Assembly: GCA_964386565.1 (NCBI GenBank)
Contig: CAYLRU010000008.1
Location: 8,110-72,109, forward strand
Source of the DNA: an uncultured Desulfobacteraceae bacterium
GTDB taxonomy: Bacteria > Desulfobacterota > Desulfobacteria > Desulfobacterales > UBA5616
Length of the DNA: 64,000 bases
Direction: 5' to 3'
Shown here: in pieces, positions 8,823 through 24,228 of the stretch
Numbering within the stretch: position 1 is the first letter of the stretch
Layout of the letters: every line of letters begins with the position of its first letter
Program-made: the position numbers and the translations under genes
The notes under the pieces: model-generated
Told to the model about the DNA's origin: nothing
What the model saw: only the letters and a program-made list of their open reading frames with translations
The model's database searches: none

Positions 8823-10487
8823 CTACATTTTTTCCGGTGATGTAACGCCCAGCAGGGCAAGTCCGTTGCGGATGACCTGTTTAACCGCGGTGACGAGATA
8901 TAAACGGCCCCGGGTTAACACCCTGTCATCCGATAACACACGGTGTTTATTGTAATAGGTATGGAACGCGGATGCAAGGTTTATCAGATAAAACGTAATC
9001 CTGTGGGGCTCCATGAATTCGGCGCTGGTTTTAACCACCTCGGGATATCCGGCCATGGCCCTGATCAGGGCGATTTCCTCGGGGGTGACGAGCCTGGATA
9101 CAGCATCCGCATCATATGGGATTTCATCGAATCCGCGTTCCGCAGCGTTCCTGATAATGCTGGATATCCTGGCATGCACGTACTGTACGTAATATACCGG
9201 GTTGTCGTTGGATTTTTTCTTTGCCAGTTCCAGGTCAAAATCCAGGGGGCTTTCATGATGACGGGTTAAAAAGATAAAACGAGCCGCATCACTGCCCACT
9301 TCGTCAACCACGTCTTTTAATGTAACGAATTCACCTGCCCGGGTGGACATGGCAACAGGCTCGCCTTCCCGCAACAGATTTACCAGTTGAACCAGAATAA
9401 CGTCAAATTTTTCCGTTTCATGTCCTGAAGCGGCGATGCAGGCCCGCATTCGCGGAATATAGCCGTGGTGGTCGGCCCCCCACACATCGATGATTCTGGA
9501 AAATCCCCGATCGAACTTATCCCCATGATAGGCAATATCCGAAGCAAAATACGTGGTGTCTCCATTGCTTCTCACCACAACGCGGTCTTTCTCATCCCCG
9601 AACGCCGTTGTTTTAAACCACCATGCCCCGTCTTTTTCATACACAAGGCCTTTTTGTTTGTAATCCTCGATGGAGCGATCCACCTTGCCGGCATCATATA
9701 AGGCCTGTTCGCTGAACCAATTGTCGTATTCGATGCCGAAGTTTTTTAAATCCTTCCCAATCTCATCGAGGATATGCTTGGCGGCAAACCGTGCACATTC
9801 GTTGACAGCCTCGTTTTCATCCATCTCCAGCAGTTTGTTTCCCCTTGCCGCCTGGATCATCCTTGCGATATCGGTGATATACGCCCCCTGATAACAATCT
9901 TCCGGAAAAGAAATATCAATACCGAACAAGGCCGTGTATCGTAAAAAAACGCTGCGCCCCAGCGTGTTGATCTGACGTCCGGAGTCATTAACATAGTACT
10001 CCCTTTGAACGTCGTATCCGCAGAGTTTCAAAATATTGGCAACCGCATCCCCCACGGCGGCGCCCCGGCCATGCCCCACATGCAAGGGACCCGTCGGGTT
10101 GGCACTGACGAATTCCACCTGCACCCGTTCATTGTTTCCCATATTTACGGCGCCGTATGTTTCATTCTGCACGTGGATGGTTTTCAATACGGGATGCCAT
10201 GCAGACGGTTTGACAAAAAAATTAATAAACCCGGGACCGGCGATCTCCACTTTTTCGAACAGGCCGTCCATATCAACGATTTGGCTGACAATGGCCTCGG
10301 CGATCTTTCTCGGGGCCATCTTTAAAACGGATGCGGACACCATGGCGATATTGGTGGAAAAATCCCCCTGGGTCTCAAATTTGGGCTCTTCGATTTCAAC
10401 GGCCGGAATATCCGGCGAGTTCAACATCTTGTTTTGGTAAGCACTGCGGGCCGCAGCCGTTACCAGTTTTTGTATCGTGTGCTTCAT
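8823..10487 (-). CDS. argS: arginine--tRNA ligase
   Basis: Class I HIGH motif ([12 protein letters not shown]), DALR anticodon-binding C-terminus and the terminal ...PEKM typical of ArgS. ATG 10487 lies 9 nt after GAGGA; the ORF extends to GTG 10517. Confidence 0.96.
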
Positions 10488-10695
10488 CTGCAGTATCCTC
10501 GAAATTAATCGTTTCACTTCATAAAGTGTTTCCCGTTGTTAGTCAAGATACTTGGCTTTCATCCGGCTTACCATCAAAATTAAATGTCGTTAACGCAGCG
10601 CTGTTTTCCCACGACTTCCGTCAAAGAGCCGGTTAGAAACGCAAAAACAGTCCTTCCTGGTGGAGAAGGATAGCGTTAATGACATTGAATTTCAA

Positions 10696-10854
10696 TTGAC
10701 AACACTTAAGATATTGTTTATAAATAAAAACAACTTCAGGCTGAAGCCTGAACCGAATATTCATTGCTGTCATGAAACCCACGCTGCCACGAAGGTAACC
10801 ATATCATGAAGATATGCGGATTTCGTGGTTTTTTTTTTGGAAACGGAGGATCAA
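10696..10854 (+). promoter_or_regulatory. promoter plus ~125-nt structured leader of the Ni/Co ECF transporter operon (candidate attenuator/riboswitch)
   Basis: TTGACA 10696-10701, 17-nt spacer, TATAAA 10719-10724. Hairpin TTCAGGC(10735-41)-tgaa-GCCTGAA(10746-52). Terminator at 10786-10838, then GGAGGA and ATG 10855. Confidence 0.55.
10786..10838 (+). terminator. intrinsic terminator inside the 5' leader, 6 nt upstream of the SD
   Basis: Outer stem CCACGAA(10787-93)/TTCGTGG(10822-28), inner stem CATATC/GATATG, followed by T10 (10829-10838). No plus-strand gene lies upstream for it to terminate. Confidence 0.65.
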
Positions 10855-11634
10855 ATGAAAAAAGGTTTATGTTTCAGTCTATCTTTGGTAGTTTTATCTT
10901 TATTATGCGTCTGTCCGGTCATGGCACACTACGGCATGATCATTGTCTCCGACACCATGGTGATGCAGGAGGACAATCGGACGGTCCACGTGGATCTCTC
11001 GTTTTCCCACCCGTTTGAACTCATCGGTATGGAACTGGAAAAGCCCAAAGTCTTTGGTGTGATGGCCAACGGTAAAAAACAGGATCTGCTGGAAACCCTG
11101 AAGCAAACCAAGGTAATGGATCATACGGCATGGACCGCAAATTATAAAATCAGACGACCGGGCATCTATATGTTTTACATGGAGCCGACCCCCTACTGGG
11201 AGCCGTCCGAGGATTGTTTTATTGTTCATTACACGAAAACCGTTGTGGCCGCCTTCGGGAACGACGAAGGGTGGGATGAACCAGTGGGATTGAAAACGGA
11301 AATCGTACCTGTTTCCAAACCCTTTGGGCTTTATGCGGGAAACGTATTCCAGGGTATGGTTCTGCTGGATGGAAACCCGGTACCCAACGCCGAGGTTGAG
11401 ATTGAATTTTACAACCAGCAGAAAAAATTCCAGGCACCCACGGACTATATGATCACCCAAACCATAAAGGCCGATCCCAACGGCATCTTCACCTATGCCC
11501 CCCCACAAGCAGGCTGGTGGGGATTTGCCGCGTTGAACACTGCTGATGAAAAAATACAACGAGACGGAAAAGACAAGGATGTGGAACTGGGCGCTGTTAT
11601 CTGGGTGAAATTTCACGAATTCAAAATGAAATAG
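10855..11634 (+). CDS. DUF4198-type periplasmic Ni/Co transporter component (NikK-like)
   Basis: ATG after GGAGGA; signal peptide MKKGLCFSLSLVVLSLLCVCPVMA-HYGMI. Size and position directly upstream of cbiM match the NikK/CbiK-type accessory component. Confidence 0.75.
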   Translation: MKKGLCFSLSLVVLSLLCVCPVMAHYGMIIVSDTMVMQEDNRTVHVDLSFSHPFELIGMELEKPKVFGVMANGKKQDLLETLKQTKVMDHTAWTANYKIRRPGIYMFYMEPTPYWEPSEDCFIVHYTKTVVAAFGNDEGWDEPVGLKTEIVPVSKPFGLYAGNVFQGMVLLDGNPVPNAEVEIEFYNQQKKFQAPTDYMITQTIKADPNGIFTYAPPQAGWWGFAALNTADEKIQRDGKDKDVELGAVIWVKFHEFKMK

Positions 11635-11645
11635 GAGACATCTCC

Positions 11646-12251
11646 ATGCATATTTCAGAAGGCGTATTGTCCGGTCCGGTCCTGATCTCCGGTTATGCAC
11701 TGGCAGCTGCCGGAACCGCCGTCGGACTGAAAAAACTGGATTACGAAAAAATCGCCCAGGTCGGTATTCTGGGGGCCTCGTTCTTTGTCGCGTCCCTGAT
11801 TCATGTTCCCATCGGCCCTGCAAACGTCCACCTGATTCTAAACGGTATTGTCGGGATGCTGCTGGGATGGGGGGCCTTCCCCGCCATCCTTGTAGCGTTG
11901 ACCCTTCAGGCTGTTTTGTTTCAATTCGGCGGCATCACCTCCCTTGGCGTCAATACGCTGACCATGGCAGCACCGGCAGTGGTCTGTTTTTACATGTTCG
12001 GATGGATCATCCGGAAAAAACCCGGTCTGGCCGGTATGGCCGCTTTTTTATGCGGGTTTACCGCCGTTTTTATGTCTGCAGTCATCGCCGGTGCCGCCCT
12101 GATGTTCACCGAAGAAAATTTCCTGAAGGTCGCAGCCCTCATTGTGGCGGCCCATCTTCCGGTCATGGTGGTGGAAGGATTGATCACGGCCTTTTGTGTT
12201 GAATTTTTAAGAAAAGTTCGTCCTGAGATACTGGCCATGCATTATTTATAA
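11646..12251 (+). CDS. cbiM: ECF transporter substrate-capture component CbiM/NikM
   Basis: Starts with the family hallmark MHISEGVL (Met1-His2 metal ligand). About 6 TM segments, 201 aa. Confidence 0.9.
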   Translation: MHISEGVLSGPVLISGYALAAAGTAVGLKKLDYEKIAQVGILGASFFVASLIHVPIGPANVHLILNGIVGMLLGWGAFPAILVALTLQAVLFQFGGITSLGVNTLTMAAPAVVCFYMFGWIIRKKPGLAGMAAFLCGFTAVFMSAVIAGAALMFTEENFLKVAALIVAAHLPVMVVEGLITAFCVEFLRKVRPEILAMHYL

Positions 12252-12299
12252 CTTTACCCGGCTTGGGCGTTTTTTGCAAAGAAATATGCCGGAATCCGT

Positions 12300-12983
12300 A
12301 TGTATGCGAAGAAAATCACCCAATCCGACTATACAATCATTGGAGAAAAAACCGTGGAAAACCGACTGTTCGGCAAAATATGCTTGTTATTTTTTGTGAC
12401 GGCATCCTTTTTCTCAATCACCTGCATCACTCCTGCCATGGCCCACAAGGTAACCGTGTTTGCCTGGGTGGAGGGCGACCAGGTGTTTACCGAAAGCAAA
12501 TTAAGCGGTGGAAAACGCGTTGCAGCGGGTGACATCACCGTTTACGATGCCTCCAACAACGTCCTTTTAAAAGGAAAAACCAATGACCAGGGAGAATTTT
12601 CATTTAAACTTCCACAAAAACCGCCCCTGATTATCGAGCTTAACGCCGGTATGGGACACCAGGCCAAATGGACCATTCAGCCGGATGACGTGGATGATGA
12701 TACCTTTCCAGCAGGCAATGATCCGGAAAAGGACATCATTGCCTCCGAACCGGTAAAAACAGCCCCGTCCGTGGACAGATCCGCGGAATTAAATACCGCG
12801 GATCTCGAAGCCGTGGTAGAAAGGGTCCTGGATAAAAAACTCAAACCCGTCATTCGATTGTTGGTGGATACCCGACAAAACGAACCGTCATTATCCGAAA
12901 TCATCGGCGGAATCGGCTATATCATGGGTATCGTGGGCATCATCGCCTATTTCCAAAGCCGGTCGCCGAAGCGGGACAAATAG
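12300..12983 (+). CDS. NikL-like nickel transport accessory protein (signal/TM - beta-sandwich - C-terminal TM)
   Basis: N-terminal hydrophobic segment ICLLFFVTASFFSITCITPAMA-HKV, a transthyretin/CarboxypepD_reg-like block (ITVYDASNNVLLKGKTNDQGEFSF) and a C-terminal TM (IIGGIGYIMGIVGIIAYF). Alternative start GTG 12354 after GGAG. Confidence 0.65.
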   Translation: MYAKKITQSDYTIIGEKTVENRLFGKICLLFFVTASFFSITCITPAMAHKVTVFAWVEGDQVFTESKLSGGKRVAAGDITVYDASNNVLLKGKTNDQGEFSFKLPQKPPLIIELNAGMGHQAKWTIQPDDVDDDTFPAGNDPEKDIIASEPVKTAPSVDRSAELNTADLEAVVERVLDKKLKPVIRLLVDTRQNEPSLSEIIGGIGYIMGIVGIIAYFQSRSPKRDK

Positions 12984-13014
12984 GGAACCGGCCCGAGAAA
13001 ACCGTTCATTAAAC

Positions 13015-13773
13015 ATGATCGAAGAATATTTTACTGAAGCAGGTACCCAGATCCACCGGCTGGATCCGCGGCTTCGAATCGTTTTTGCCACGGCCTACGC
13101 GTTTTCCGTGGCCCCTCTCCATCGATTCGAACCCATGTATGCAGCGGCGGTGTTGTCCCTGTTGATGGTCATCCTGTCCGGAGTGGGTATCGGGACTCTG
13201 GTGAAGCGCATGCTGGCCTTTAACGGTCTTGTTCTTCTGTTCTGGCTGGTGCTGCCCTTCACCTTTTCCGGTGAAGCCCTTTACAGTATCGGCCCGTTTA
13301 CCATCACCCGGCCCGGTGTTATCATGTCTGCAAAGATCACGCTGAAGGCCAACGCCATCATGCCGGCTTTCATTGTCATGATTTCAACGATCCCCGTTTC
13401 AGTCATGGGCCATGCCCTGGAAAAGCTTCATGTGCCGAAAAAAATCGTTCATATTCTTCTGTTGACTTACCGTTACATATTCGTGATAGAACAGGAATAT
13501 CAGCGGCTGAAGCGTGCCATAAAAACAAGGGGGTTTGTTCCCGGGACCAATATGCACACATACAAAACCTATGCATACCTCATCGGCATGATATTTGTCC
13601 GATCCCTGGACCGGGCCCAACGGGTGCATCAGGCCATGATCTGCCGCGGATTTTGCGGAAAATTTTTCTCCCTGAACCGATTTTCCTTGAAAAAAGCAGA
13701 CTATGCTTTTCTGCCGATCATGGCAGCCGCGATTATCGGACTGGAGGTGATGGAATGGATTCCGATCCGGTGA
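13015..13773 (+). CDS. cbiQ: ECF transporter transmembrane (T) component CbiQ
   Basis: 252-aa polytopic protein with the CbiQ/EcfT signature region (YRYIFVIEQEYQRLKRAIKTRGF). Sits between cbiM and cbiO. Confidence 0.88.
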   Translation: MIEEYFTEAGTQIHRLDPRLRIVFATAYAFSVAPLHRFEPMYAAAVLSLLMVILSGVGIGTLVKRMLAFNGLVLLFWLVLPFTFSGEALYSIGPFTITRPGVIMSAKITLKANAIMPAFIVMISTIPVSVMGHALEKLHVPKKIVHILLLTYRYIFVIEQEYQRLKRAIKTRGFVPGTNMHTYKTYAYLIGMIFVRSLDRAQRVHQAMICRGFCGKFFSLNRFSLKKADYAFLPIMAAAIIGLEVMEWIPIR

Positions 13774-14486
13774 TCATCCAACTGGAAAAGGTTAATTTCT
13801 CGTATCCCAACGGCCGGGTTGTACTTAAAGATACCGATTTTTCCCTCCGGACAGGCCAGAAAATCGGATTGATCGGCCACAACGGAAGCGGTAAATCCAC
13901 CTTCTTGCACATCCTGGTCGGGTTATTGAAAATATCCGGCGGTTCCATTCGCTTCTTCAGAGAACCGGTGGTATCTGAAAAAGATTTTCAAAAGGTCAGG
14001 CAGCACATCGGCCTGGTATTTCAGAATTCCGACGACCAGCTTTTCAGCCCAACGGTATTGGAAGACATTGCCTTTGGGTTGTTGAATCAGGGCAAAACAC
14101 CTGAAGAAGCCCGGGAAATATCCAGGAAACTGCTGACCGACCTCGACCTGAAAGATTTTGAAAACCGGGTCACCTACCGGCTGTCCGGCGGCGAAAAGCG
14201 GCTGGTAGCCCTGGCAACGGTTCTCGTCATGGAACCCCGGGTGCTGTTGCTGGATGAACCGTTTACCGGGCTGGACGAATACACCCGGGATCACATCATT
14301 GAAATCCTGAATCATCTGGATATCAGCTATATCATCGTGACCCATGAATACGACTCCCTGGTCCAGACCACCAGTGACATCTGCAGCATGGAGAATGGCA
14401 AAATCATTTATAACGGCGATTCATCCATGCTCCACAGCCATTTTCACCGGCACCCCGGGGGAACCGTCCACCATCATCACCGATAG
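13755..14486 (+). CDS. cbiO: ECF transporter ATPase CbiO with His-rich C-terminal tail
   Basis: ATG 13755 after GGAGGTGATGGA, overlapping the cbiQ end by 19 nt. Walker A GHNGSGKST, signature LSGGEKR, Walker B LLLDEP. Tail: HSHFHRHPGGTVHHHHR. Confidence 0.9.
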   Translation: MDSDPVIIQLEKVNFSYPNGRVVLKDTDFSLRTGQKIGLIGHNGSGKSTFLHILVGLLKISGGSIRFFREPVVSEKDFQKVRQHIGLVFQNSDDQLFSPTVLEDIAFGLLNQGKTPEEAREISRKLLTDLDLKDFENRVTYRLSGGEKRLVALATVLVMEPRVLLLDEPFTGLDEYTRDHIIEILNHLDISYIIVTHEYDSLVQTTSDICSMENGKIIYNGDSSMLHSHFHRHPGGTVHHHHR

Positions 14487-14494
14487 CGACACCG

Positions 14495-15421
14495 ATGACA
14501 GACGATATTCTTATTCAGCATCATTTCCTGTTTCAAAAAGGATTCTTTGAAAGGCACCCTTCCCTTTTTGATATCTATTTCCGCAATACCCCGAGAAAGC
14601 TGTACGACAAATTGGAAAAGACAAAAGCCGCCCTTACCGCCTATGAAGGAACCATTCAATGGCCGGCGATCAGGGGGCCGGGATTTTGCGGGGCCACCCA
14701 TCCCGGGGCCGGAAAAAGTTTTAACGGCTACATGACGGGCTGCTCCCCGTCTTTTTACAACAGCGACTGTCTTTATGTCCATCCGGGTCTGAACATTTTT
14801 GCCGTATCCGACCCCCCCGGGATCACCACAATCTCCCGAAAGCTTTTTGAAAAACTGGATGACCGGTTAAGAAAAACAACCACGGATAGACTTGATACTG
14901 TCATCAATGACCTGGCCGCCGGCATCCAGGAAAACGGGCCCACCCTGGCATTGATTCAATTTCAACAATACGGCATCTCCCGGACGCCAAACCGGGCATT
15001 TGTTTATATCGCCGGTGACACCGAAGTATACCGGGGAAACTTTAAAGGGGAAAAAATCAAACGGATTAACGGCAGCCCGCATTTCTGGGGAACTGCATGC
15101 CATGATTTAAAGCCCCGCGTGTTTGAATTGAACAGCAACGATTTTTTTCTTATCGTCAGTGACGGCATCAGCAGTCTGAGACAGACCGTTCCCGAGCATG
15201 GAATCGAAAAAATCCTTTGGGAACATATCATTCGTGATCCTGAAAAATTTGCCGAAAACGTCACCATGACCTGCAACCGGGTTTTTACCCAAAACAATAA
15301 CGGCAGATCCCGAACCCTGCTCGGCGGAACGGATGACATCACCGCCCTGCTAGTCGTCCCATCGGCGCTTGCCCAAATCCCTGTTGATAAAGGATACATA
15401 CTGGGAGGACACATCGGCTAA
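14495..15421 (+). CDS. PP2C/SpoIIE-family phosphatase-like protein
   Basis: Starts 8 nt after cbiO. Degenerate PP2C motifs FAVSDPPG, FFLIVSDGISS and GGTDDITALLV. Confidence 0.55.
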   Translation: MTDDILIQHHFLFQKGFFERHPSLFDIYFRNTPRKLYDKLEKTKAALTAYEGTIQWPAIRGPGFCGATHPGAGKSFNGYMTGCSPSFYNSDCLYVHPGLNIFAVSDPPGITTISRKLFEKLDDRLRKTTTDRLDTVINDLAAGIQENGPTLALIQFQQYGISRTPNRAFVYIAGDTEVYRGNFKGEKIKRINGSPHFWGTACHDLKPRVFELNSNDFFLIVSDGISSLRQTVPEHGIEKILWEHIIRDPEKFAENVTMTCNRVFTQNNNGRSRTLLGGTDDITALLVVPSALAQIPVDKGYILGGHIG

Positions 15422-15645: not shown

Positions 15646-16518
15646 TCATTGTCCCGGGTTCCAGACGTCCCTGAGGCTGTCCCCCAAAAGATTAAAGGCC
15701 AATACGGAAAGCATGATGGCAATTCCCGGATATACTGAAAGATGGGGTGCGCTTAAAATATAGTCTTTCCCTTCCATGAGCAACGTACCCCATTCCGGAT
15801 AGGGTGGCTGGACACCGAATCCCAAAAACCCAAGGGCCGATACGGCAATAATTGCCTTTGCCAGTCCGATGGTGGCAAGAACGATGACCGATCCGATGTT
15901 TGCCGGCAAGATATGGCGAAAAACAATAACAATTCTTGATACCCCTGAAAACTGCGCGACTTTTACATAATCCCGTTCCTTAACAGAAAGGGTAATCCCT
16001 CTGACAAGTCTGGCGTAACGCATCCAGCCGGTAATGGAAAGGGCAAAAATCAGATTAAATGTGCCCGGTCCCATTAGCCCTGCCAGTGTCATGGCAGCAA
16101 CTATCTCAGGAAGGGAAAGAAAAATATCGGCAATTCTCATGAGCAATTCATCCATGAGACCGCCCTGGTAGCCGGCAACCAACCCAACCATTACTCCCAA
16201 AAGGCAGGAAACCATCACCACAGAAACTCCCAGCCCTATGGACATGCGCGCACCAGACAAAATACGTGAAAAAAGACACCGGCCCAAGGCATCATTGCCC
16301 AGAGGATATTGCAGGCAAGGAGAAGCTAATCTTAAAGACAAATCTGTCTTCAGGGGATCATGGGGGGATAGCGCAGGCCCCAAGGCAGCTATAAAAAACA
16401 CCACGACTGCGATTACGGCCGCGCCTGAAATCAGGGGGTTTTTAATTACGGAGCGGTAAAATCTGCCCTGGATTTTTTCATATCCGGCATGCTCCCGCGA
16501 AAAATCATGAGCACTCAT
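15646..16518 (-). CDS. Opp/Dpp/Nik-type ABC transporter permease (DppC/NikC-like)
   Basis: 290-aa polytopic protein with the BPD_transp_1 EAA-type region. Overlaps the upstream permease by 4 nt. Confidence 0.9.
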   Translation of the reverse strand: MSAHDFSREHAGYEKIQGRFYRSVIKNPLISGAAVIAVVVFFIAALGPALSPHDPLKTDLSLRLASPCLQYPLGNDALGRCLFSRILSGARMSIGLGVSVVMVSCLLGVMVGLVAGYQGGLMDELLMRIADIFLSLPEIVAAMTLAGLMGPGTFNLIFALSITGWMRYARLVRGITLSVKERDYVKVAQFSGVSRIVIVFRHILPANIGSVIVLATIGLAKAIIAVSALGFLGFGVQPPYPEWGTLLMEGKDYILSAPHLSVYPGIAIMLSVLAFNLLGDSLRDVWNPGQ

Positions 16519-17453
16519 AATGGTCGAATCCGTGGATCCAGATATTGGTAGACAATATCCACAAAAAAATTAATCAGGACAAAAATCATAGCGGTAAAAA
16601 ACACCAGACCTTGTATCAAAGGATAATCCCTGTTGCTGACCGCATTGACCATCAGTTCCCCCAGCCCCGGCCATGCGAAAATGGTTTCCGTTATCACTGC
16701 TCCCTCAAGAATCATTCCCAATTCCAGCCCCACCACGGTAACTACAGGTATCATTGCATTTTTCAATATGTGACCTCCGAGCACGAGGCGGCTACTGACG
16801 CCTCTGGCGCGAAGGGCCAACAGGTATTCAGACTGCAAGGTTTCTGCGACGGCGGAACGCAAAATTCGTGTCGTATAGGCCGTCAGTGCGGTTCCCAGTG
16901 TTATGGCGGGCAAAACCAGATGCTGCCAATCCCCACGGCCAAAGCTTGGAAGCCAATGAAGTTTCACACAAAAAACAACAATGAGCACCAGCCCAAGCCA
17001 GTAATTGGGCATGGAAATACCGGTTACGGCAACCGCAACTCCGATTGAATCAAGCCATGTGCCTTGCCTGACGCCTGAAAGAATACCGATTGGCACGGAT
17101 ATGATCAGTGCAAGGAAAATGGCGGTTATGGCAAGATCAAAGGTACGGCTGAATCGAATGCTGATGAGTTCCCAAACAGGTACTTCCTCCACCAGTGATA
17201 TGCCAAAGTCAAGACGGACGACATGCTTCAACCAATGGAAATATTGCTGATAAAAAGGCTTGTCCAATCCTTCTTCCTGAATGATCCATTCAATGGTGGC
17301 CTGATCTACTAAACCTGGTTCTCCATAGCGGGCAATGGCTATCTCCAGGGGGGCGTCACCCGGTGCAAGCAGCATCATGGCGTAGGTAAAAAAAGTTGCG
17401 CCAATGAGGACAAAAATTGCGGTAACTATGCGCTTTGATATGAATCGTACCAT
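16515..17453 (-). CDS. Opp/Dpp/Nik-type ABC transporter permease (DppB/NikB-like)
   Basis: 312 aa with the typical DppB N-terminus (IVTAIFVLIGATFFTYAMMLLAPGDP) and C-terminus (IVYQYLDPRIR). Confidence 0.9.
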   Translation of the reverse strand: MVRFISKRIVTAIFVLIGATFFTYAMMLLAPGDAPLEIAIARYGEPGLVDQATIEWIIQEEGLDKPFYQQYFHWLKHVVRLDFGISLVEEVPVWELISIRFSRTFDLAITAIFLALIISVPIGILSGVRQGTWLDSIGVAVAVTGISMPNYWLGLVLIVVFCVKLHWLPSFGRGDWQHLVLPAITLGTALTAYTTRILRSAVAETLQSEYLLALRARGVSSRLVLGGHILKNAMIPVVTVVGLELGMILEGAVITETIFAWPGLGELMVNAVSNRDYPLIQGLVFFTAMIFVLINFFVDIVYQYLDPRIRPL

Positions 17454-17477
17454 TCAAACATTTTTCTATAACTGACG

Positions 17478-19277
17478 TTAATCTAAATGACAAAAAATCT
17501 CATGTTCGCACGTGATATTTCTTTTTAACGGCGCGATTTTTTCGCATACCGAGAGCCGTCGGGGGCATCTTGAGTGAAATATACAGCCGGATGGCGGGTC
17601 ATAAGGAGACGGAATCTCCCCTTCAAGAACGATCCGTTTATCCTGCCATAGGCCGGGTTTTAGTGCATTTGACAAAAGGGCCTGTGAATATGGATGGCGA
17701 GCGGAGGAAAAAAAGATTTCCACCGGGGCCTTTTCAACGATTCTTCCCAGATACATTACAGCCACGGTTGTGCCGATGTCTTTGACAAGGCCGAGGTCGT
17801 GGGTAATGAGAAAACAGGTCAGGCCATGCCGCCTTTTCAGCCTGTAAAGCAGCTTCGCCATGTCTTTTTGGTTCACAGCATCCAGAGCGCTCAGGGGTTC
17901 GTCGAGAAATAAAAGATCGGGGCCGGTTGAAAGGGCACGGGCGATACATGCTCTTTGATTCTGACCCACCGATACTCTCCCGGGTGGTTGCTGAAGCAAA
18001 GAGTATGAAAGCCCCACTTCCGCTGCCAATCTTTTGACAATCTTTTCCCTCTCTTTCTTCTTAACACCCCTGGCATGTAACGGCTCCATAATAGACTGTC
18101 CCAAGGAAAGATAGGGGCTTAAAGAAGCAACCGGATCCTGGAAGACCACCTGGGACTTGGATTTCATCCTTTGATGGACCGGATCGCCGGGCCGCCTGAC
18201 GGGTTGACCATCGAAAATCATCTCACCTTCCTGATACGGACAGAATCCTAGCATGGCGTTTATCAGGGTTGTCTTTCCGGAACCGCTTTCACCTATCAGG
18301 CAAAAGATCTCTTCACGGCGGACATCCAGACTGATATTCCTTACGGCATAAAATGAACGATGGGAAAAGAGCGTTTCGGCCCTAAGCGTGAATTGAACGG
18401 AAAAGTTGCGGATGGAAATGGCGGAAGCTGTCTCCGGTTTTTCATACCTGTTCCCGACTTGTTCAGACATACCTGAAACAAGCCGCCGGGTATATGGATG
18501 TGACGGTCGGAAAACTATTTCACGCGCTGCCCCGTTTTCCACGATATGGCCCTTGTGCATCACCGCTACCCGGTCACATACCTCCAGGGCAACTGAGAGG
18601 TCGTGGGTGATAAAGATGATTCCGGTGCCATAACGTTTTTTTAAAAGGGCGATTAACTGGATGATCTGCACGGTAATCGTAGGATCAAGGGCCGATGTAA
18701 CTTCATCCAGTATCACGACTTCCGGCCTGGTGGAAAATGCCATTTGTAACTGGGCACGTTGCAGCATCCCCCGGCTCCATTGATGGGGATACTGCCGACA
18801 CCGTTCTTCCGGTGAAGCAATGCCAACCGTTTGGAGAAGGTCATTTATTTTTTGATTTTCCCTTTCCTGTTTTCTCCATCTACGCTTTTTTAAGCCGGAG
18901 CGAACCGACAGAACATCTTTGAATTGGTTACCCACTGTAAAGACCGGGTCCATCGCGCTTTTGGGATTTTGCAGCACCAGGGATATCTTACGTCCCCTGA
19001 AATACTGCATCTTTTGCTGACTTTGCGTGGTGAGCTCTTGACCACCCAGAACAATGGAACCGGAAACAATTTTTCCCGGGTATTCCAGCCGTACAAGGGT
19101 CCTGGCAAAAACGCTTTTCCCGCAACCGGATTCCCCCACAAGGCCGAGAATTTCACCCCGGTTAAGCGAGAGACATAGACCATCGAGAACCCTTGGACCG
19201 GTCGCCCTGCCTGGTAAATCGACAACCAGGTTTTTCACCTTAAGAATTGGATTCGCTGCTGTCGCGCGTTGATACAT
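17478..19277 (-). CDS. fused double ATPase of Opp/Dpp/Nik-type ABC transporter (DppD-DppF fusion)
   Basis: 599 aa with two nucleotide-binding domains: Walker A GESGCGKS and GESGSGKT, two signature/Walker B sets (ILDEVTSALD, LFLDEPLSALD). Confidence 0.9.
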   Translation of the reverse strand: MYQRATAANPILKVKNLVVDLPGRATGPRVLDGLCLSLNRGEILGLVGESGCGKSVFARTLVRLEYPGKIVSGSIVLGGQELTTQSQQKMQYFRGRKISLVLQNPKSAMDPVFTVGNQFKDVLSVRSGLKKRRWRKQERENQKINDLLQTVGIASPEERCRQYPHQWSRGMLQRAQLQMAFSTRPEVVILDEVTSALDPTITVQIIQLIALLKKRYGTGIIFITHDLSVALEVCDRVAVMHKGHIVENGAAREIVFRPSHPYTRRLVSGMSEQVGNRYEKPETASAISIRNFSVQFTLRAETLFSHRSFYAVRNISLDVRREEIFCLIGESGSGKTTLINAMLGFCPYQEGEMIFDGQPVRRPGDPVHQRMKSKSQVVFQDPVASLSPYLSLGQSIMEPLHARGVKKKEREKIVKRLAAEVGLSYSLLQQPPGRVSVGQNQRACIARALSTGPDLLFLDEPLSALDAVNQKDMAKLLYRLKRRHGLTCFLITHDLGLVKDIGTTVAVMYLGRIVEKAPVEIFFSSARHPYSQALLSNALKPGLWQDKRIVLEGEIPSPYDPPSGCIFHSRCPRRLSVCEKIAPLKRNITCEHEIFCHLD

Positions 19278-19317
19278 TTTTCAGCACCTGCCGTTTTTGC
19301 ACCGGGTGGTTGAGAAT

Positions 19318-20904
19318 TCATTTTCGATAGATCTCGGGGGTCAGAAGGAATTTCTCCGCCGGATGAATCCGGTAGTTTTGCACATAATTATAGGCGACGG
19401 ATACCATTGATTTGTAAAACAGCACAATCACAGGACTGTCGTCATAGATAATTTCCTGAATCCGGTCATAAATTATTTTGCGCTTTTTAGGGTCAAAAGT
19501 GACTTTTCCTTTTCTCGCCAATTCGTCCAGTTCCGAGTTGTGGTATCCCATACAGTTTGACCCGGCCTGGCCGGTAAAAACATTGGAGATGAAAAAATCA
19601 GGGTCACCTTCAGGAGCAACGTTCCACATCTGCAAATTTAAATGAACCTCGCCTTTTCTCATGGCCCTGCTGATAGGTGATCCCCTTTGGGTAATTTTCA
19701 GCTTTGTAATGATGCCCACCCTATGCAATTGTGCCTGTATCAATTCAAGGACCGGTTTTAACGATGCACGTCCTTCATAGGTCCACATATTCAGTAACAA
19801 CGGCCGGCCGGCCATTTCCAATATCCCGTCTCCGTCACTGTCTTTGGCGCCGGCCTCAGCCAAAAGCTTTAATGCTTTGTCAGGGTCATAAGGATACGGT
19901 TTCAGGTTACGGTTACCCCAGGGAATGGTTCCAGGAAAAACTGACGCGCCGACTTGTCCCCCCACGCCGCCAAGAACCGTATCAACAATCTCCTGTCGAT
20001 TGATGGCATGGTTGATGGCCTTTCGGACACGGGAATCGGCAAGAGGGCCGTCTGCAATCCTTACAAAAAAAAAGCAAAGCCGATTGGTGGGTTCGTGATA
20101 GATTCGGACGTCTTTTCGCGATGCCATGCGCTTTACATCATTTTCAGGAAAATTTGTCACCACATCCAATTGTCCGGCTTCAAACGCCAGCATCCGCGTT
20201 GAAGGGTTCCTGATGATTTTCAGATGAACTTTTGCAAGCTTTGCCCTGCCCCCCCAATAACCGTCAAATCGGGACACAATCATCTCTTCCTTTGGAATCA
20301 CCTTGTCCAATACAAACGGGCCGGTGCCGTAAATTCTTTCTTTACTGCTCCCGGGGCTGACAATCCCTGTCCCAGGTGATGTTAAATAATATAAAAACGC
20401 AGCATTGGGCTTATGGGTTTCAAATACCAGGATATCGTTATCCTTAACGGTGATGTTTTTGATATCCAGCATTTTCTGTATCCGTATATTGAACACCTCG
20501 CTTTTTTTATCAATAATACGGTCAATGGACCATTTAACGGCTCTGGCGTTTAAGGGTGTATTGTCATGAAACCGGATCCCATTTTTTAATTTGATCTCCC
20601 AGATTAAAGGACTGAGGTTTTTGGATGCAGCCACGAGCCAGGGCCTTAAATTCATTTCAAAGTCAAGCACAAAGAGCGTTTCGGTCACTCCGGCCTCGTT
20701 GGTGTACCAACCGTTGGCCCCTTTGGCCGGATCAGGACATTTTACGGATGGGCCAAAAGGTTTGGCAATGATCAGTTTGTCCGGTCCGGCTGCAAAAACA
20801 CCGGTAGCAAATAATTCCAGTGAAAACAGAAGGATCAGTATAACAGCCAGACCAATCTCCCTATCTTCTTGCATGCGCAATAAAGAATGCCGGTTTTTTT
20901 TCAT
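19318..20904 (-). CDS. family 5 (DppA/NikA-type) ABC substrate-binding protein
   Basis: SBP_bac_5-like sequence across about 500 aa. Signal peptide after MKKNRHSLLRMQEDRE-IGLAVILILLFSLELFATGVFA. The start is ambiguous (20904, 20874, or up to 21051); every option overlaps the methyltransferase 3' end. Confidence 0.85.
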   Translation of the reverse strand: MKKNRHSLLRMQEDREIGLAVILILLFSLELFATGVFAAGPDKLIIAKPFGPSVKCPDPAKGANGWYTNEAGVTETLFVLDFEMNLRPWLVAASKNLSPLIWEIKLKNGIRFHDNTPLNARAVKWSIDRIIDKKSEVFNIRIQKMLDIKNITVKDNDILVFETHKPNAAFLYYLTSPGTGIVSPGSSKERIYGTGPFVLDKVIPKEEMIVSRFDGYWGGRAKLAKVHLKIIRNPSTRMLAFEAGQLDVVTNFPENDVKRMASRKDVRIYHEPTNRLCFFFVRIADGPLADSRVRKAINHAINRQEIVDTVLGGVGGQVGASVFPGTIPWGNRNLKPYPYDPDKALKLLAEAGAKDSDGDGILEMAGRPLLLNMWTYEGRASLKPVLELIQAQLHRVGIITKLKITQRGSPISRAMRKGEVHLNLQMWNVAPEGDPDFFISNVFTGQAGSNCMGYHNSELDELARKGKVTFDPKKRKIIYDRIQEIIYDDSPVIVLFYKSMVSVAYNYVQNYRIHPAEKFLLTPEIYRK

Positions 20905-21601
20905 TCTGTTTTTTGCCCCCATAAGGATTAAAGCCAACGCGAGATGTATCATAAGATCGAATCTCTTTAAAACGGGCAGCATGCAAAAGCATGCTGGCCT
21001 TTTCAAAGCAAATGCCTTCATAAAATGGAAGCGACTTTTGCAGACCGGCATAGCTTCGGAAAAAACGAAGGAAAATCATACTGCGGTTCCGGCGCATCCC
21101 TTTGAGCAATTTGAAAGCCAAATGATGAATACGCTTCCAAGTGGTATTCATCCATAACCCGTCGGATACTATCAAGATGCCTTCTGGTTTCAAAATCCGC
21201 CGCCATTCTTCAAGTGCTTTATCGGGATGCGGAAGCGTCCACAACAAATTCCGGGAAACCACCACATCAAAAGTGCTGTCACCGAACGCAAGCGCCTCGG
21301 CGTCTCCGATCTGAAAATCGATATCAAGCCCTTGATTTGCTGCATATTGCCCGGCAATGAAAAGCATGTTTTCGGCCAGATCGATACCCGTCACGTTGAA
21401 ACCGGCACGGGCGAGATATACGGCAAACTGTCCGGTCCCGGTTCCGATATCCAGCGCGCGCCTTCCGGGAGCCCCTGGAGCCAGTTCTTTTAAAATGGAT
21501 TCCCAGTTCTTGGCTATTGCAATCGACTTGTCCGTATCATGGCCGTAACTTCTGCTTCTCCAGTTCCAGTAATTTTTAATCGAAGCTTTTACCCTGTCCA
21601 T
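20861..21601 (-). CDS. class I SAM-dependent methyltransferase
   Basis: SAM-binding motif I ALDIGTGTGQFAVYLARAGFNVTGIDLAENML, then the acidic post-I and motif II region (GDAEALAFGDSTFDVVVS). Confidence 0.85.
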   Translation of the reverse strand: MDRVKASIKNYWNWRSRSYGHDTDKSIAIAKNWESILKELAPGAPGRRALDIGTGTGQFAVYLARAGFNVTGIDLAENMLFIAGQYAANQGLDIDFQIGDAEALAFGDSTFDVVVSRNLLWTLPHPDKALEEWRRILKPEGILIVSDGLWMNTTWKRIHHLAFKLLKGMRRNRSMIFLRFFRSYAGLQKSLPFYEGICFEKASMLLHAARFKEIRSYDTSRVGFNPYGGKKQNEKKPAFFIAHARR

Positions 21602-21704
21602 ATAGATCCTCTCAAAAAGCTAACCGATGCAGTTACCACCGGCAGATGCATTCCGCCCATAGAGGCTGCATCGGTAATGTCAAATCCGGGTCACACCATG
21701 GTCT

Positions 21705-24020
21705 TTAGTAGCAAACGCTCACCGTACCGAGCCAAAATCGGCCGGGGGCACGGTAGTATTCATAGTATTTTTCATCAAAAAGATTGTCCACGGAAAGGGA
21801 GAGTGCGATATGGTCCATCGGCCTGGCAGTTATCTTGGCGTCTACAATATGGTATTCGTCATCTGCTCTGTATGTTGTGTCCGCATATTGGGCATATTCA
21901 TCATCGTATCTGCTGTCACAATATCTATAGCTGATGCTCGCATCCAGGTAACGGCCGAAATAGCCAAGCCAGAGGCTCCACATGTCCGTGGGCGTCTCAT
22001 TCACTTCCCATCCCAGCTTGGAAGAAACTTGCGTTTTCGTATATTCGGACCAGTTATGCGCATAAAACAGACCGGCCTTCATATTGTGGGGCAGAAGGGC
22101 TTCAATCGAGGCCTCGATACCGTTTACCTCGGCCTCTTCGGCATTGACCCGCTTTTTCTCTGTTACCTGGGTTCCGTCCGCAAGGGTATAAGTTGTTGTT
22201 TGATTTACGATCAGGTCCTTAAAATCATTTTCAAAATAGGTTGCCTTGACCCGGATGCGCTTTTCCCAGAATTCCCATTCCGTACCGATCTCCCAGGATT
22301 TATTGGTCGTGGGGCCAAGGTCGGGATTCGGATCGGCCATGGAAATGGTTCCGCCGCCTTCCCAATAGTAGCTTGCGGTTCTGTAATACAGGGAAGGTGC
22401 GGTAAATGCTTCGCCATACGACGCCCGAACTGTACCGTTCTCAAATGGACGATACACCAACGACACTTTGGGGCTGAACTTTCCGTCATCCGTGTCCGGG
22501 TATTCGATATTACTTCCGTCAATATTGGAATAGTCTGCATCAGTACCCCACCAATGGTCGTAGCGGCCGCCCAGATAGGCAGTCAAATGGTCTGCAGGTG
22601 AATACTCCACCTGGATGAATGTTCCCAGCGTACGGTTTTTGCCTGAAGTCTCTTCCCTGACGGATACAGTGCTGTCTTTGTCGTAAGGATCGGAAAGGTT
22701 ATTGTCCGTGACCGTGGCCTCTTCCTGAACGCCTTGAATTCCCACCGTAACCAGGCATTTGTCGTTCAAATAATGAAATGTGGCTGCCAGATCGGCCTGG
22801 GCAAGGTAATTGTCTTCCACCTTATACCGGCTGTTGCTGATATTATGGGTCGCACTTTCCTTATCGTTGAAAGCGAGAAGACCAACGATATCTACCGAGT
22901 CGGGTATTGAGTGATTGAAACGCAGGGTGTGGACCATGGATTCTTTTGTTTTCGGGTTCGAAGTAAAATTAAACGGGCTCAATGTTGTTGTGTATGTGTT
23001 TCCCCCATCCTGAATATAGACATCGCCTTCATAGAGGGTTGTTCCGGATGAATTCTTCAGAAAGCTCTTCCCGTCCTTCCAACCGTATTCGAATTCGCTG
23101 ATATTGAGGCTGTACCATAACCGGGTATTGGGGGCGAAGTCATAACCTGTTTTAAAAAACAGGCCGTGGTCTTCATACCAGTTGTCGCCCTGATGACCGA
23201 TCTTGTAGCGATCATTTCCGGTTTGCGGATCAACATCCTTTTCCCAGCCTGTTACTATCGGGATATTGGGATCAAGCACACCTGTAACGGGGGTGTTCAG
23301 GCTTTTGTAAGAAGGAGTCGTGACATAGCCGTCCGAACTACGCGATTTGAAACTGAACGAGTAAAAAAAACGGTCGCCAAGGATGGTGGGGTCAAACCAG
23401 AAACTCCGTTTCCTGCCACCATTTTTCTTTCCAAAAGGTCGATCGGCAAATCTGAAACTGTAAAAATGGCTGTTCCAGTTGCCGTAAGAAGCCGAGGCAT
23501 CTATCTCCGCATCTTCCGGTATTTTTGTTGTATAATTAATAACGCCGGTCTGGGCCAACGTTCCGTATAGCGCGGAAAACGGCCCTCTGACCACGTCAAT
23601 TCTTTCCACATCCGGCATCGGTATGGCACCGGTATGCGAATAGTAGCCGTAATCGTACCAATTGACCCCGTCAACCTGAACAAGGGCTCTTTGGCTGCGG
23701 ATAACAGGCCGGGCCCAATAGTCCGCCAGCCCCCGGTACTGCCTTGGCCAGATCCCTTCCGTCAGGACAAGCGGTTTAAAGGGGTGCTCGGAATTAAAGG
23801 CCTTTATTTCATCTTCCGTAATGACGGAAACGCTTGCCGGAGCATCTATCGGCGCTTTTGGTGTTCTTGTTGCCATAACCGTTATGGGTTCAAGTTGGTA
23901 CGGTTCGGCATCATGTCTGACCGTCGACTGGTGGCCGGCGTCTTCTGTCTCAGCCCACACCGGTTGACAAATAAAAAAGATCATTGCCGCTGCAAAACAC
24001 AATATCGATTTCAACTTCAT
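21705..24020 (-). CDS. TonB-dependent outer-membrane receptor
   Basis: ATG 24020 after GGAGGAGG; signal peptide MKLKSILCFAAAMIFFICQPVWA. Plug-domain motifs (EPITVMATR, VVRGPFSALYG), a long beta-barrel and an aromatic C-terminus. Confidence 0.92.
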   Translation of the reverse strand: MKLKSILCFAAAMIFFICQPVWAETEDAGHQSTVRHDAEPYQLEPITVMATRTPKAPIDAPASVSVITEDEIKAFNSEHPFKPLVLTEGIWPRQYRGLADYWARPVIRSQRALVQVDGVNWYDYGYYSHTGAIPMPDVERIDVVRGPFSALYGTLAQTGVINYTTKIPEDAEIDASASYGNWNSHFYSFRFADRPFGKKNGGRKRSFWFDPTILGDRFFYSFSFKSRSSDGYVTTPSYKSLNTPVTGVLDPNIPIVTGWEKDVDPQTGNDRYKIGHQGDNWYEDHGLFFKTGYDFAPNTRLWYSLNISEFEYGWKDGKSFLKNSSGTTLYEGDVYIQDGGNTYTTTLSPFNFTSNPKTKESMVHTLRFNHSIPDSVDIVGLLAFNDKESATHNISNSRYKVEDNYLAQADLAATFHYLNDKCLVTVGIQGVQEEATVTDNNLSDPYDKDSTVSVREETSGKNRTLGTFIQVEYSPADHLTAYLGGRYDHWWGTDADYSNIDGSNIEYPDTDDGKFSPKVSLVYRPFENGTVRASYGEAFTAPSLYYRTASYYWEGGGTISMADPNPDLGPTTNKSWEIGTEWEFWEKRIRVKATYFENDFKDLIVNQTTTYTLADGTQVTEKKRVNAEEAEVNGIEASIEALLPHNMKAGLFYAHNWSEYTKTQVSSKLGWEVNETPTDMWSLWLGYFGRYLDASISYRYCDSRYDDEYAQYADTTYRADDEYHIVDAKITARPMDHIALSLSVDNLFDEKYYEYYRAPGRFWLGTVSVCY

Positions 24021-24228
24021 TTCAAATCCTCCTCCAAATAAAAAAGCCACGAAGTCGCTCTCCTTTCCGGGAGCACAGACCTTCGTGGCCTTTTGTTCAG
24101 GCTCTTTATATTGTTTCCGCCGATATACGGCGACATGACTTTTGGCTTTGCCCTGAAATTAAACCGTTTGCGACTTCTGCCGCAGATTAAGAAAGAATTT
24201 TTTTACTTGATATTTTCCGGGAAGTCAA
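24021..24228 (-). promoter_or_regulatory. promoter plus ~170-nt structured leader of the TonB-receptor/ABC operon (candidate attenuator/riboswitch, related to 10696-10854)
   Basis: Read on the minus strand: TTGACT (24228-24223), 17-nt spacer, TAAAAA (24205-24200). TTCAGGGC (24157-24150) can pair with GCCTGAA (24102-24096). Internal hairpin CGCCG-tatat-CGGCG (24132-24118). Terminator at 24089-24036, then GGAGGAGG (24035-24028) and ATG 24020. Confidence 0.55.
24036..24089 (-). terminator. intrinsic terminator inside the 5' leader, abutting the SD
   Basis: 5' arm GCCACGAAGGTC and 3' arm GACTTCGTGGC (one bulged G), with an inner GCTCC/GGAG(A)GC stem, followed by TTTTTTATTT and then directly GGAGGAGG. 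Confidence 0.65.

Follow-up and report, generated by a model that had tools for sequence, protein, structure and literature searches.

The window analysed here, a stretch of 64,000 nucleotides from an uncultured Desulfobacteraceae bacterium, contains two metal-importer operons, one coding for an energy-coupling factor (ECF) transporter and starting with nikK, the other starting with the gene of a TonB-dependent receptor. Both are preceded by a non-coding leader ending in an intrinsic terminator close to the Shine-Dalgarno (SD) sequence of the first gene. As outlined below, the leader upstream of nikK very probably belongs to a genuine, conserved family of attenuators, which is apparently undescribed and outside Rfam. 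Its elements are as follows (MFE, minimum free energy).

10696-10724, + strand: sigma-70-type promoter read from the sequence, with the -35 box TTGACA (10696-10701), a 17-nt spacer and the -10 box TATAAA (10719-10724)
10735-10752, + strand: hairpin P1, TTCAGGC/TGAA/GCCTGAA, with a 7-bp stem and a tetraloop UGAA closed by C-G (MFE and centroid fold)
10753-10784, + strand: variable, A/U-rich linker of 32 nt without conserved sequence or pairing
10785-10797, + strand: mini-hairpin UGCC[ACGAA]GGUA, an alternative fold of the 5' arm of the terminator (MFE fold of the nascent RNA, -3.1 kcal/mol alone)
10786-10838, + strand: intrinsic terminator including the U-tract (fold; the hairpin alone -17.3 kcal/mol)
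10786-10793 paired with 10822-10829, + strand: outer stem P2 of 8 bp, bearing the nearly invariant core CCACGAAGG
10800-10816, + strand: inner hairpin P3, CATATC-ATGAA-GATATG, with the loop AUGAA
10829-10838, + strand: U-tract T10 (sequence)
10845-10849, + strand: SD sequence GGAGG, 6 nt past the U-tract (sequence)
10855, + strand: ATG of nikK (span from SD to ATG, 10845-10857), the frame being confirmed by the Pfam match of the translation begun there

Promoter, 125-nt non-coding leader, terminator and the SD/ATG of nikK together span 10696-10857. This layout, which had been read directly from the sequence in a preliminary description of the window, agrees with the prediction by RNAfold, in which both the MFE and the centroid structure consist of P1 plus the terminator. 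As usual for intrinsic terminators, a G+C-rich hairpin, here the 8-bp P2 topped by P3, is followed by the U-tract. The transcription start site (TSS) would lie at about 10731, and the only open reading frame (ORF) inside the leader is an ATG frame of eight codons, which has no SD sequence and is not conserved. A simple promoter scanner skipped the promoter solely because it demanded a T at the last -10 position; the relatives of the leader also carry a TTGACA box, at the same distance to P1. The gene upstream (8823-10517, - strand) was identified as argS, coding for arginyl-tRNA synthetase, and is divergent from the leader, as previously stated. A perfect 6-1-6 palindrome, ATTGAA-T-TTCAAT, occupies 10684-10696 (+ strand), its last base being the first base of the -35 box, and is partly kept in a relative from the same genus (L005); it could represent a candidate DNA operator providing a second layer of control.

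The related leader on the other strand proposed in the preliminary description indeed exists at 24228-24018 and has the following elements.

24200-24228, - strand: promoter read from the sequence, TTGACT (24228-24223), a 17-nt spacer and TAAAAA (24205-24200)
24169-24184, - strand: P1, GCGGC-AGAA-GUCGC, directly past the TSS, with a 6-bp stem and the loop AGAA (MFE fold)
24096-24157, - strand: insertion in the linker, a UUCAGG...CCUGAA helix enclosing a GCCG...CGGC hairpin (fold)
24077-24091, - strand: mini-hairpin AGGCC[ACGAA]GGUCU (MFE and centroid folds of the nascent RNA; -5.8 kcal/mol alone, z = -2.6)
24036-24090, - strand: intrinsic terminator (fold, z = -3.2)
24090-24081 paired with 24054-24045, - strand: P2
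24075-24056, - strand: P3, with the loop GGAAA
24045-24036, - strand: U-run
24035-24018, - strand: SD sequence and ATG of the TonB-receptor operon

The terminators of both leaders have the exact 11-mer GCCACGAAGGT in common, which occurs five times in the 3.38-Mb genome, whereas the composite of the 11-mer core and TTCGTGG within 60 nt is found genome-wide only at the two leaders. Of the blocks described earlier as shared, the 11-mer and the terminator are thus retained, while the TonB leader does contain the TTCAGG helix, but this is not homologous to P1. It is a lineage-specific feature missing from the other family members, and the true homologue is the hairpin at 24184-24169, which is nearly identical to the P1 hairpins of two relatives (L008 and L009). 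The covariance model introduced below matches the terminator region of this leader with 29 bits (E = 0.004). It also finds a third, more divergent copy in the same genome, outside the window (G000:C27:20-144, - strand), with the P1 hairpin ACAGUC-AUGAA-GACUGU, the core CCACGAAGG and the P3 loop AGGAA, which sits 19 nt from the end of its contig. The gene divergent to the TonB-receptor leader (24961-26574, + strand) codes for a hybrid-cluster protein of the Prismane family.

Conservation, covariation and spread of the element

A BLAST comparison of the leader with 40 relatives shows that its terminator part of about 53 nt is 77-92% identical across families of the Desulfobacterales, which would not be expected of an ordinary terminator. 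The covariance model R1, built from 12 sequences, matches 106 of 151 Desulfobacterales genomes at E<=0.01 and 69 of them at E<=1e-5, often with two to five copies per genome; those weak matches that were inspected all contain the core and all lie ahead of transport genes. In a phylum-wide sample, the motif appeared in only nine genomes outside the Desulfobacterales, belonging to a few other orders. When 185,579 species genomes were scanned for the pattern, at least 119 loci were obtained; by our estimate, about 17 would be expected by chance. They include Clostridia, Peptococcaceae, Ruminococcaceae and Oscillospiraceae on the side of the Bacillota, as well as Thermodesulfovibrio, Nitrospira, Desulfobacca and Syntrophobacteraceae. 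Of the out-of-phylum loci that were rescored, most were confirmed either by the model or by eye, the latter from the presence of P1 and the same gene contexts. Candidate carriers that can be cultivated are Desulfonema magnum, Desulfoluna butyratoxydans MSL71 and Anaerosolibacter carboniphilus DSM 103526. The motif therefore spans at least three phyla, the Thermodesulfobacteriota, Nitrospirota and Bacillota.

Several loci carry more than one copy. Tandem copies in one leader or copies repeated within one gene cluster are found in L056:201-469 and in L088 (three copies), two copies each in L057, L058, L067 and L161, and divergent pairs in L111 and L144; in some gene clusters, each sub-operon has its own copy. 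In the leaders of a Nitrospirota and a Nitrosomonadales metagenome-assembled genome (MAG; L107:251-373 and L147:3911-4004, respectively), the upstream hairpin is a second CC[ACGAA]GG unit, so that these leaders represent direct repeats of the recognition hairpin, while two P1-type hairpins with AUGAA loops lie upstream of the motif in a Clostridium MAG (L146). A Nitrospira MAG has a tRNA-Sec gene (L161:2127-2219, + strand; Rfam, 63 bits) at a distance of about 80 nt to a copy of the motif.

The structure of the element was evaluated with 85 aligned members, and the covariation of P1 also with a set of 33 relatives. Compensatory changes were found at all seven pairs of P1 (in both sets) and at all six pairs of P3. 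P2 comprises 8 bp, is paired in 93.5% of cells and has an outer pair that is GC in 37, AU in 33 and GU in 14 cases. Over all stems, 92.6% of cells are paired, compared to 71% in shuffled and at most 45% in slid versions. Hardly any variation is seen in the core CCA-N-GAAGG and its 3' partner, and changes of the N are matched in the 3' arm (CCAGGAA/UUCCUGG, CCAUGAA/UUCAUGG), indicating covariation even inside P2. The terminator hairpin averages about -21 kcal/mol, with a median of 8 U among the 9 nt 3' of P2. Loops of the (N)NGAA type (UGAA, AGAA, AAGAA, AUGAA and others) close P1 in about 72 of the 85 members. The linker measures 10-57 nt, with 72% A+U, in the model alignment, as compared to 29-108 nt in the instances defined by the pattern; the arms CCACGAA...TTCGTGG are 23-33 nt apart (11 nt in one case), the inverted repeat sits 60-130 nt downstream of the promoter, and the U-run is always on one strand. 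Two subtypes can be distinguished. The nikK subtype, to which the ECF leader belongs, has the sequence CCACGAAGGUA and GUAUC-AUGAA-GAUAC as P3, while the second one, represented by the TonB leader, has GCCACGAAGGC and a variable P3 and occurs ahead of TonB receptors and other genes.

The blocks which the preliminary description had expected to recur upstream of orthologous operons are thus conserved and covarying in 106 of the 151 Desulfobacterales genomes as well as in other phyla, and a transcription-attenuating leader common to two metal-importer operons is supported. This earlier reading is right in substance, in that a new cis-regulatory RNA is shared by metal importers, and wrong with respect to the proposed swap of pairing partners between the arms of P1 and those of the terminator. 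Since the arms of P1 are free to vary and the terminator arm is invariant, the resemblance between these strands is specific to one sequence, and the swap is ruled out as a general switch.

The assumption that the element belongs to no known riboswitch class also held: scans of both leaders and of the loci of 15 relatives were negative. No Rfam 15 family reached its gathering threshold in the 64-kb window with cmscan, the permissive scans (E<=10) of the two leaders returned unrelated small RNA (sRNA) models at best (E = 0.29 and 0.97), and in the loci of the relatives nothing matched at the motif and no family attained a gathering score. The scan does work on this genome, because the Cobalamin model of the same library finds four riboswitches elsewhere in it. 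A full-text search of the literature produced no description of the motif.

Gene contexts and nickel as the probable signal

As judged from Pfam and NCBIfam scans, the two leaders of the window precede the following genes.

10855-15421, + strand: ECF operon as a whole
10855-11634, + strand: NikK/DUF4198
11646-12251, + strand: CbiM/NikM
12300-12983, + strand: NikL-family subunit
13015-13773, + strand: CbiQ
13770-14486, + strand: ECF ATPase
14495-15421, + strand: ORF of 308 aa, which starts 8 nt past the ECF ATPase gene and closes the nik operon
15646-24035, - strand: TonB-receptor operon as a whole
24020-21705, - strand: TonB-dependent receptor
21601-20861, - strand: S-adenosylmethionine (SAM) methyltransferase
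21051-19318, - strand: NikA-like substrate-binding protein (SBP)
19277-17478, - strand: double ATP-binding cassette (ABC) ATPase
17453-15646, - strand: two permeases

The ORF of 308 aa has no match in the Pfam or NCBIfam scans; its GGTDDITALLV stretch near the C-terminus resembles by eye a motif of PP2C/SpoIIE phosphatases, and the product could be an accessory or regulatory protein.

In a census of the genes downstream of 76 leaders from the order and the phylum, the first gene after the motif codes for NikK in 33 cases, CbiM/NikM in eight, TonB receptors in six, NikA-type SBPs in four, and Peripla_BP_2 proteins accompanied by FecCD and an ATPase in three. Further genes following the motif code for ExbB/ExbD/TonB, outer-membrane channels, SAM methyltransferases, a tetrapyrrole-methylase-like protein, FmdE-domain proteins and DUF3842 proteins. 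In one Ruminococcaceae and one Oscillospiraceae MAG, LarE, LarB and LarC are encoded downstream of the motif, which together make the nickel-pincer cofactor, LarC carrying the Pfam domain Ni_insertion. The Oscillospiraceae locus additionally contains a Nik/Opp-type permease gene after the lar genes, and its leader, which scores 23.7 bits against the model (E = 0.16), has the core and a P3 with an AGAA loop.

Some contexts are of a different kind. A convincing copy of the motif lies ahead of genes for a glycyl-radical enzyme, its activase and a DUF3842 protein in the Clostridium MAG mentioned above (L146:1308-5237), and a weak copy ahead of an iron-type alcohol dehydrogenase gene (L099:3109-4272). 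In L024, L032, L037, L044 and L057 (e.g., L057:1939-3111), cbiM is replaced after nikK by a gene for a protein of about 390 aa, which has a signal peptide, no Pfam match and a beta-barrel-like sequence with a terminal Phe, and probably represents a dedicated porin of the system in the outer membrane.

The preliminary description had seen neither control by NikR nor a cobalamin riboswitch at these loci, and no operator, no nikR gene and no cobalamin features were found. NikR_C is not detected in this genome, which is 96.8% complete, nor in 148 of the 151 Desulfobacterales genomes, and two of the three NikR-positive genomes of the order do not contain the motif. A NikR operator, be it of the GTGTTAC-N13/14-GTAACAC or of the enterobacterial type, is missing at up to 3 mismatches in both promoter regions and at up to 2 mismatches in the window. 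The four cobalamin riboswitches of the genome sit on genes for a BtuB-like receptor, CobT and BtuF/FecCD. Since the corrinoid genes carry riboswitches of their own, corrinoid control is a separate matter, and these standard riboswitches rule out a corrinoid as the signal of the new element. The motif is therefore likely to belong to nickel homeostasis, and the nickel gene set, the absence of NikR and the separate corrinoid riboswitches make nickel status the most likely signal; cobalt may be considered as an alternative to it. The motif is probably how these largely NikR-less bacteria control their nickel supply.

Proposed mechanism and alternative explanations

The 5' arm of the terminator and the next two G can adopt an alternative fold, n-CC[ANGAA]GG-n, which uses nucleotides of the 5' arm of P2 and is mutually exclusive with it. 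The loop of this mini-hairpin is ACGAA in 66, AUGAA in 5, GCGAA in 4 and AGGAA in 2 sequences (77 of the 85 members), and shares its consensus, the free second position and the C-G closure with the loops of P1 and about half of those of P3. The GG is kept in 80 of 85 members, in spite of its unconserved partner in the terminator form. The third pair is G-C in 36, A-U in 26 and G-U in 14 members and unpaired in 8. In the 116 pattern-defined instances, whose flanks are unconstrained, pairs 3, 4 and 5 are formed in 103, 66 and 55 cases, respectively, compared to means of 90.7 +/- 2.4, 51.0 +/- 3.7 and 44.4 +/- 4.3 after shuffling the partners among the sequences. RNAfold predicts the mini-hairpin for 61 of 85 members and for both leaders of the window if the nascent RNA is cut ahead of the 3' arm. 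It amounts to -3 to -6 kcal/mol only, as opposed to the average of about -21 kcal/mol for the terminator hairpin. Pairing between the linker and the 5' arm of the terminator occurs in just 6 of the 85 nascent MFE folds, so a conserved antiterminator formed by the linker is ruled out, and the folds of the 85 members show no conserved stable antiterminator beyond the weak mini-hairpin of 3-5 bp.

The decision of the attenuator is, in our judgement, somewhat more probably made between mini-hairpin and terminator than elsewhere. Transcription would start about 5 nt ahead of P1, which exposes an (A)NGAA loop closed by C-G. Having passed the A/U-rich linker, the polymerase would make n-CC-ANGAA-GG-n, which may fold into the mini-hairpin of 3-5 bp displaying a P1-like loop, and P3 would emerge as a third hairpin, often with the same loop. 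The 3' arm (UUCGUGG plus U-tract) could then pair with the ANGAA loop as a toehold and displace the CC/GG pairs, thereby completing the 8-bp P2 on P3 to yield a strong terminator that stops transcription 6-20 nt ahead of the SD sequence. Because the UUC of the 3' arm can pair with the loop exposed by the mini-hairpin, which may thus act as a toehold for strand invasion, unassisted transcription should terminate, i.e., the default state should be OFF. A trans-acting factor recognizing the (A)NGAA loops may use P1 as recruitment site and the mini-hairpin as decision site; by holding the mini-hairpin and covering the toehold, it would allow the polymerase to read through, and P3, wherever its loop matches, may serve as a further or recruiting site. 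Read-through would occur when nickel is scarce. The family with its structure and covariation, the mini-hairpin as a mutually exclusive fold, the nickel gene set and the lack of NikR are results of the analysis, whereas we infer the proteinaceous nature of the factor, the direction of the response and nickel as the signal. The anatomy of the leader fits such a factor-dependent antitermination better than a ligand-stabilised terminator. The best explanation of the whole, an attenuator of the nickel regulon that works by a choice between mini-hairpin and terminator under the influence of a loop-binding trans factor, appears to us about as probable as all other readings taken together, and we are similarly divided on whether the loops are read by a protein.

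Several observations weigh against this explanation. The mini-hairpin is short, and only its third pair covaries strongly; moreover, the base ahead of CC which forms this pair also covaries with the base closing P2, so that the signal is partly common to both structures. A strict P1 is present in only 56 of 115 pattern-defined instances, and in the GCCACGAAGGC subtype, P3 often has a loop other than (A)NGAA. Some downstream genes, coding for a glycyl-radical enzyme, an iron-type alcohol dehydrogenase and an amino-acid permease, are not obviously related to nickel. Neither the 85 loci of the order nor the 121 loci from all phyla, including a clustering of the flanking ORFs, revealed a candidate gene for an RNA-binding regulator beside the motif. 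Finally, the element has crossed phylum boundaries along with its operons, a pattern that one would sooner expect of a riboswitch acting on its own, or of an element relying on a universal factor.

The clustering returned a recurrent divergent gene at nine loci, which is not annotated and presumably reflects the synteny with argS, as in the window. A search with PF03861 (ANTAR) gave no match in the genome itself, and control genomes were equally silent. Among the 151 genomes of the order, DUF3842 and the motif occur together in 99, the motif alone in 7, DUF3842 alone in 21 and neither in 24. DUF3842 genes directly flank copies of the motif in L057, L059, L063, L088, L146, L178, G003:C103 and G053:C1. 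Over all copies, a DUF3842 gene lies within 3.5 kb of the motif in 9 of 121 cases, and the single copy of the present genome follows parA-parB (L218:3640-4071). The predicted model of the protein (predicted local distance difference test score, pLDDT, 87.5) shows a Rossmann-like fold of a generic kind, which matches UbiX and NAD enzymes only weakly (template modelling score at most about 0.5), and an invariant loop DGQGGxIG. The evidence for DUF3842 as the trans factor would thus have to be called mixed, nothing in it supporting RNA binding.

The rival that survives best is a self-contained riboswitch. Here, the RNA itself would bind Ni2+, Co2+ or a small molecule reporting nickel status, with the purine-rich GAA loops of P1 and P3 plus the conserved GG as the site, and binding would favour the terminator over the mini-hairpin, making the element an OFF switch for uptake. 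We regard this explanation as possible and yet rather unlikely, and the same applies to its central tenet, a direct reading of the loops by a ligand. The element does show the structural features of riboswitches, a conserved and structured part of the 5' untranslated region (UTR) with covariation and an overlapping expression platform; covarying stems, conserved loop and junction nucleotides and a built-in platform are a riboswitch hallmark. Its spread over Thermodesulfobacteriota, Nitrospirota and Bacillota without a regulator gene travelling along, the distribution complementary to that of NikR and the tandem copies (L056, L088), which are also known from some riboswitches, point in the same direction. 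Small riboswitches have precedents in guanidine-II, consisting of two small hairpins, and in the hydroxymethylpyrimidine pyrophosphate (HMP-PP, thiS) type with its terminator-embedded aptamer. However, the terminator is already very stable, and there is no conserved stable antiterminator for a ligand to overcome, i.e., no stable ligand-free ON structure. In addition, few nucleotides are conserved, and the three near-identical loops resemble repeated binding sites rather than one pocket. A ligand stabilising the three-hairpin form, in turn, would switch the importers ON in the presence of metal, which is physiologically implausible. A new riboswitch class which senses Ni2+ or a nickel-status molecule and shuts off both nickel import and nickel-cofactor synthesis, taking the place of NikR in the Desulfobacterales and occurring also in Clostridia and Nitrospirota, is put forward only tentatively. 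We know of no earlier riboswitch that represses transition-metal uptake via a terminator-embedded three-loop aptamer.

It is improbable that the element senses nothing at all and serves either as a partial, constitutive terminator ensuring a low basal level, or as the source of a 5'-UTR-derived sRNA of about 105 nt acting in trans via its GAA loops. The terminated product does have the outline of an Hfq- or ProQ-type sRNA, with P1, a linker of 72% A+U and a terminator with U-tail, and the sole weak resemblance in Rfam concerns the opposite strand, which an sRNA model matches at E = 0.29. Yet the element always lies between the promoter and the SD sequence of a nickel-related operon without a second promoter, and therefore the expression of the operon passes through it; the invariant CC..GG flanks and the identity with the P1 loop would also be purposeless in a plain terminator.

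Both attenuation by a leader peptide and a divergent form of a known class of RNA (cobalamin, NiCo/czcD, Moco or ANTAR target) are highly improbable. An ATG frame ending with ...CCA CGA AGG TAA on the core occurs in the window and in two close relatives, but only 7 of 81 members have an in-frame ATG, without an SD sequence, which rules out a leader peptide ending in Pro-Arg-Arg-stop. With respect to the known classes, no Rfam family matches either leader at E<0.1, and the loops are 4-5 nt long and of the (A)NGAA type, not hexaloops with A1 and G4 as in ANTAR targets, the linker being long and variable (PMC8934654). The least probable reading, for which we see hardly any room, treats CCACGAA...TTCGTGG as a DNA operator of a dimeric transcription factor replacing NikR: both half-sites are nearly invariant inverted repeats, but such a palindrome is ruled out by the variable arm spacing and the compensatory changes at the RNA level, since the intervening sequence changes by compensatory pairs, the U-run is restricted to one strand and P1 covaries as RNA.

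Related systems and biological significance

The closest functional parallel is the antitermination by ANTAR proteins such as EutV, NasR and AmiR. In both cases, at least two small hairpins carry the same conserved loop and the default outcome is termination; the 5' arm of the terminator supplies the last hairpin, so that only one of the two structures can form at a time, while the first hairpin is used for recruitment (PMC8934654). The loops of ANTAR target RNAs comprise six nucleotides, the first being A and the fourth G, and a short linker of constrained length separates the hairpins (PMC8934654), whereas the present element has tetra- and pentaloops (UGAA, AGAA, AUGAA, ACGAA) closed by C-G and a variable linker of 10-108 nt. 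Moreover, its regulon concerns nickel, in contrast to nitrogen or ethanolamine in the case of ANTAR. By analogy, the leader may thus work like an ANTAR antitermination system without being a member of that family.

With regard to the genes controlled, the best comparison is with the NikR regulons, whose members include nikABCDE in E. coli and nixA, frpB4, fecA3, exbBD-tonB and ceuE/fecDE in Helicobacter. Nearly the same gene set, composed of ECF-type Nik systems, NikA-type ABC transporters, TonB receptors with ExbBD/TonB and FecCD-type ABC transporters, is found behind the element described here. NikR, however, is a DNA-binding repressor acting at GTGTTAC-N13/14-GTAACAC, while control is exerted here on the nascent RNA at a terminator, and neither nikR nor its operator was found. 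NikR regulons also comprise the nikKMLQO genes of delta-proteobacteria (PMC545781).

Among the riboswitches, HMP-PP (thiS) shares conserved nucleotides inside the terminator hairpin and a small upstream hairpin as the only other element; the two RNAs are, however, unrelated in both sequence and structure, the present element has no match in Rfam, and ligand binding by it is hypothetical. Leaders of the thiS type are easily mistaken for plain terminators. The guanidine-II riboswitch (mini-ykkC) resembles the element in its tandem small hairpins with identical short, C-G-closed loops and a variable linker. The mini-ykkC loops are of the type ACGR and kiss upon ligand binding, which frees the SD sequence, whereas the present element combines loops lacking self-complementarity with a terminator as platform and again has no Rfam match. 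The NiCo (czcD) riboswitch is likewise a cis-RNA tied to nickel and cobalt homeostasis, and some of the phyla are in common, but it is an ON switch for efflux with a four-way junction; the present element is a hairpin plus terminator on uptake genes and does not match the Rfam model.

The supply of nickel is critical for anaerobes with [NiFe]-hydrogenases, CO dehydrogenase/acetyl-CoA synthase or nickel-pincer enzymes. Spanning at least three phyla and present in more than two-thirds of the genomes sampled from the order, one RNA element stands ahead of nearly every type of nickel importer and offers a concrete, testable answer to how nickel is controlled in the Desulfobacterales, where NikR is present in 3 of 151 sampled genomes. 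By means of the motif, the nickel regulon can be defined by sequence alone. It also points to nickel-related roles of so far unassigned genes, namely those for FmdE-domain proteins, tetrapyrrole-methylase-like proteins, DUF3842 paralogues and the SAM methyltransferases encoded beside TonB receptors. Either view of the sensor would, if true, be new, representing a metal riboswitch class in one case, or an RNA-binding antiterminator together with a nickel-sensing protein in the other. Being short (about 105 nt) and modular, the element may finally serve as a nickel-responsive expression part for anaerobes.

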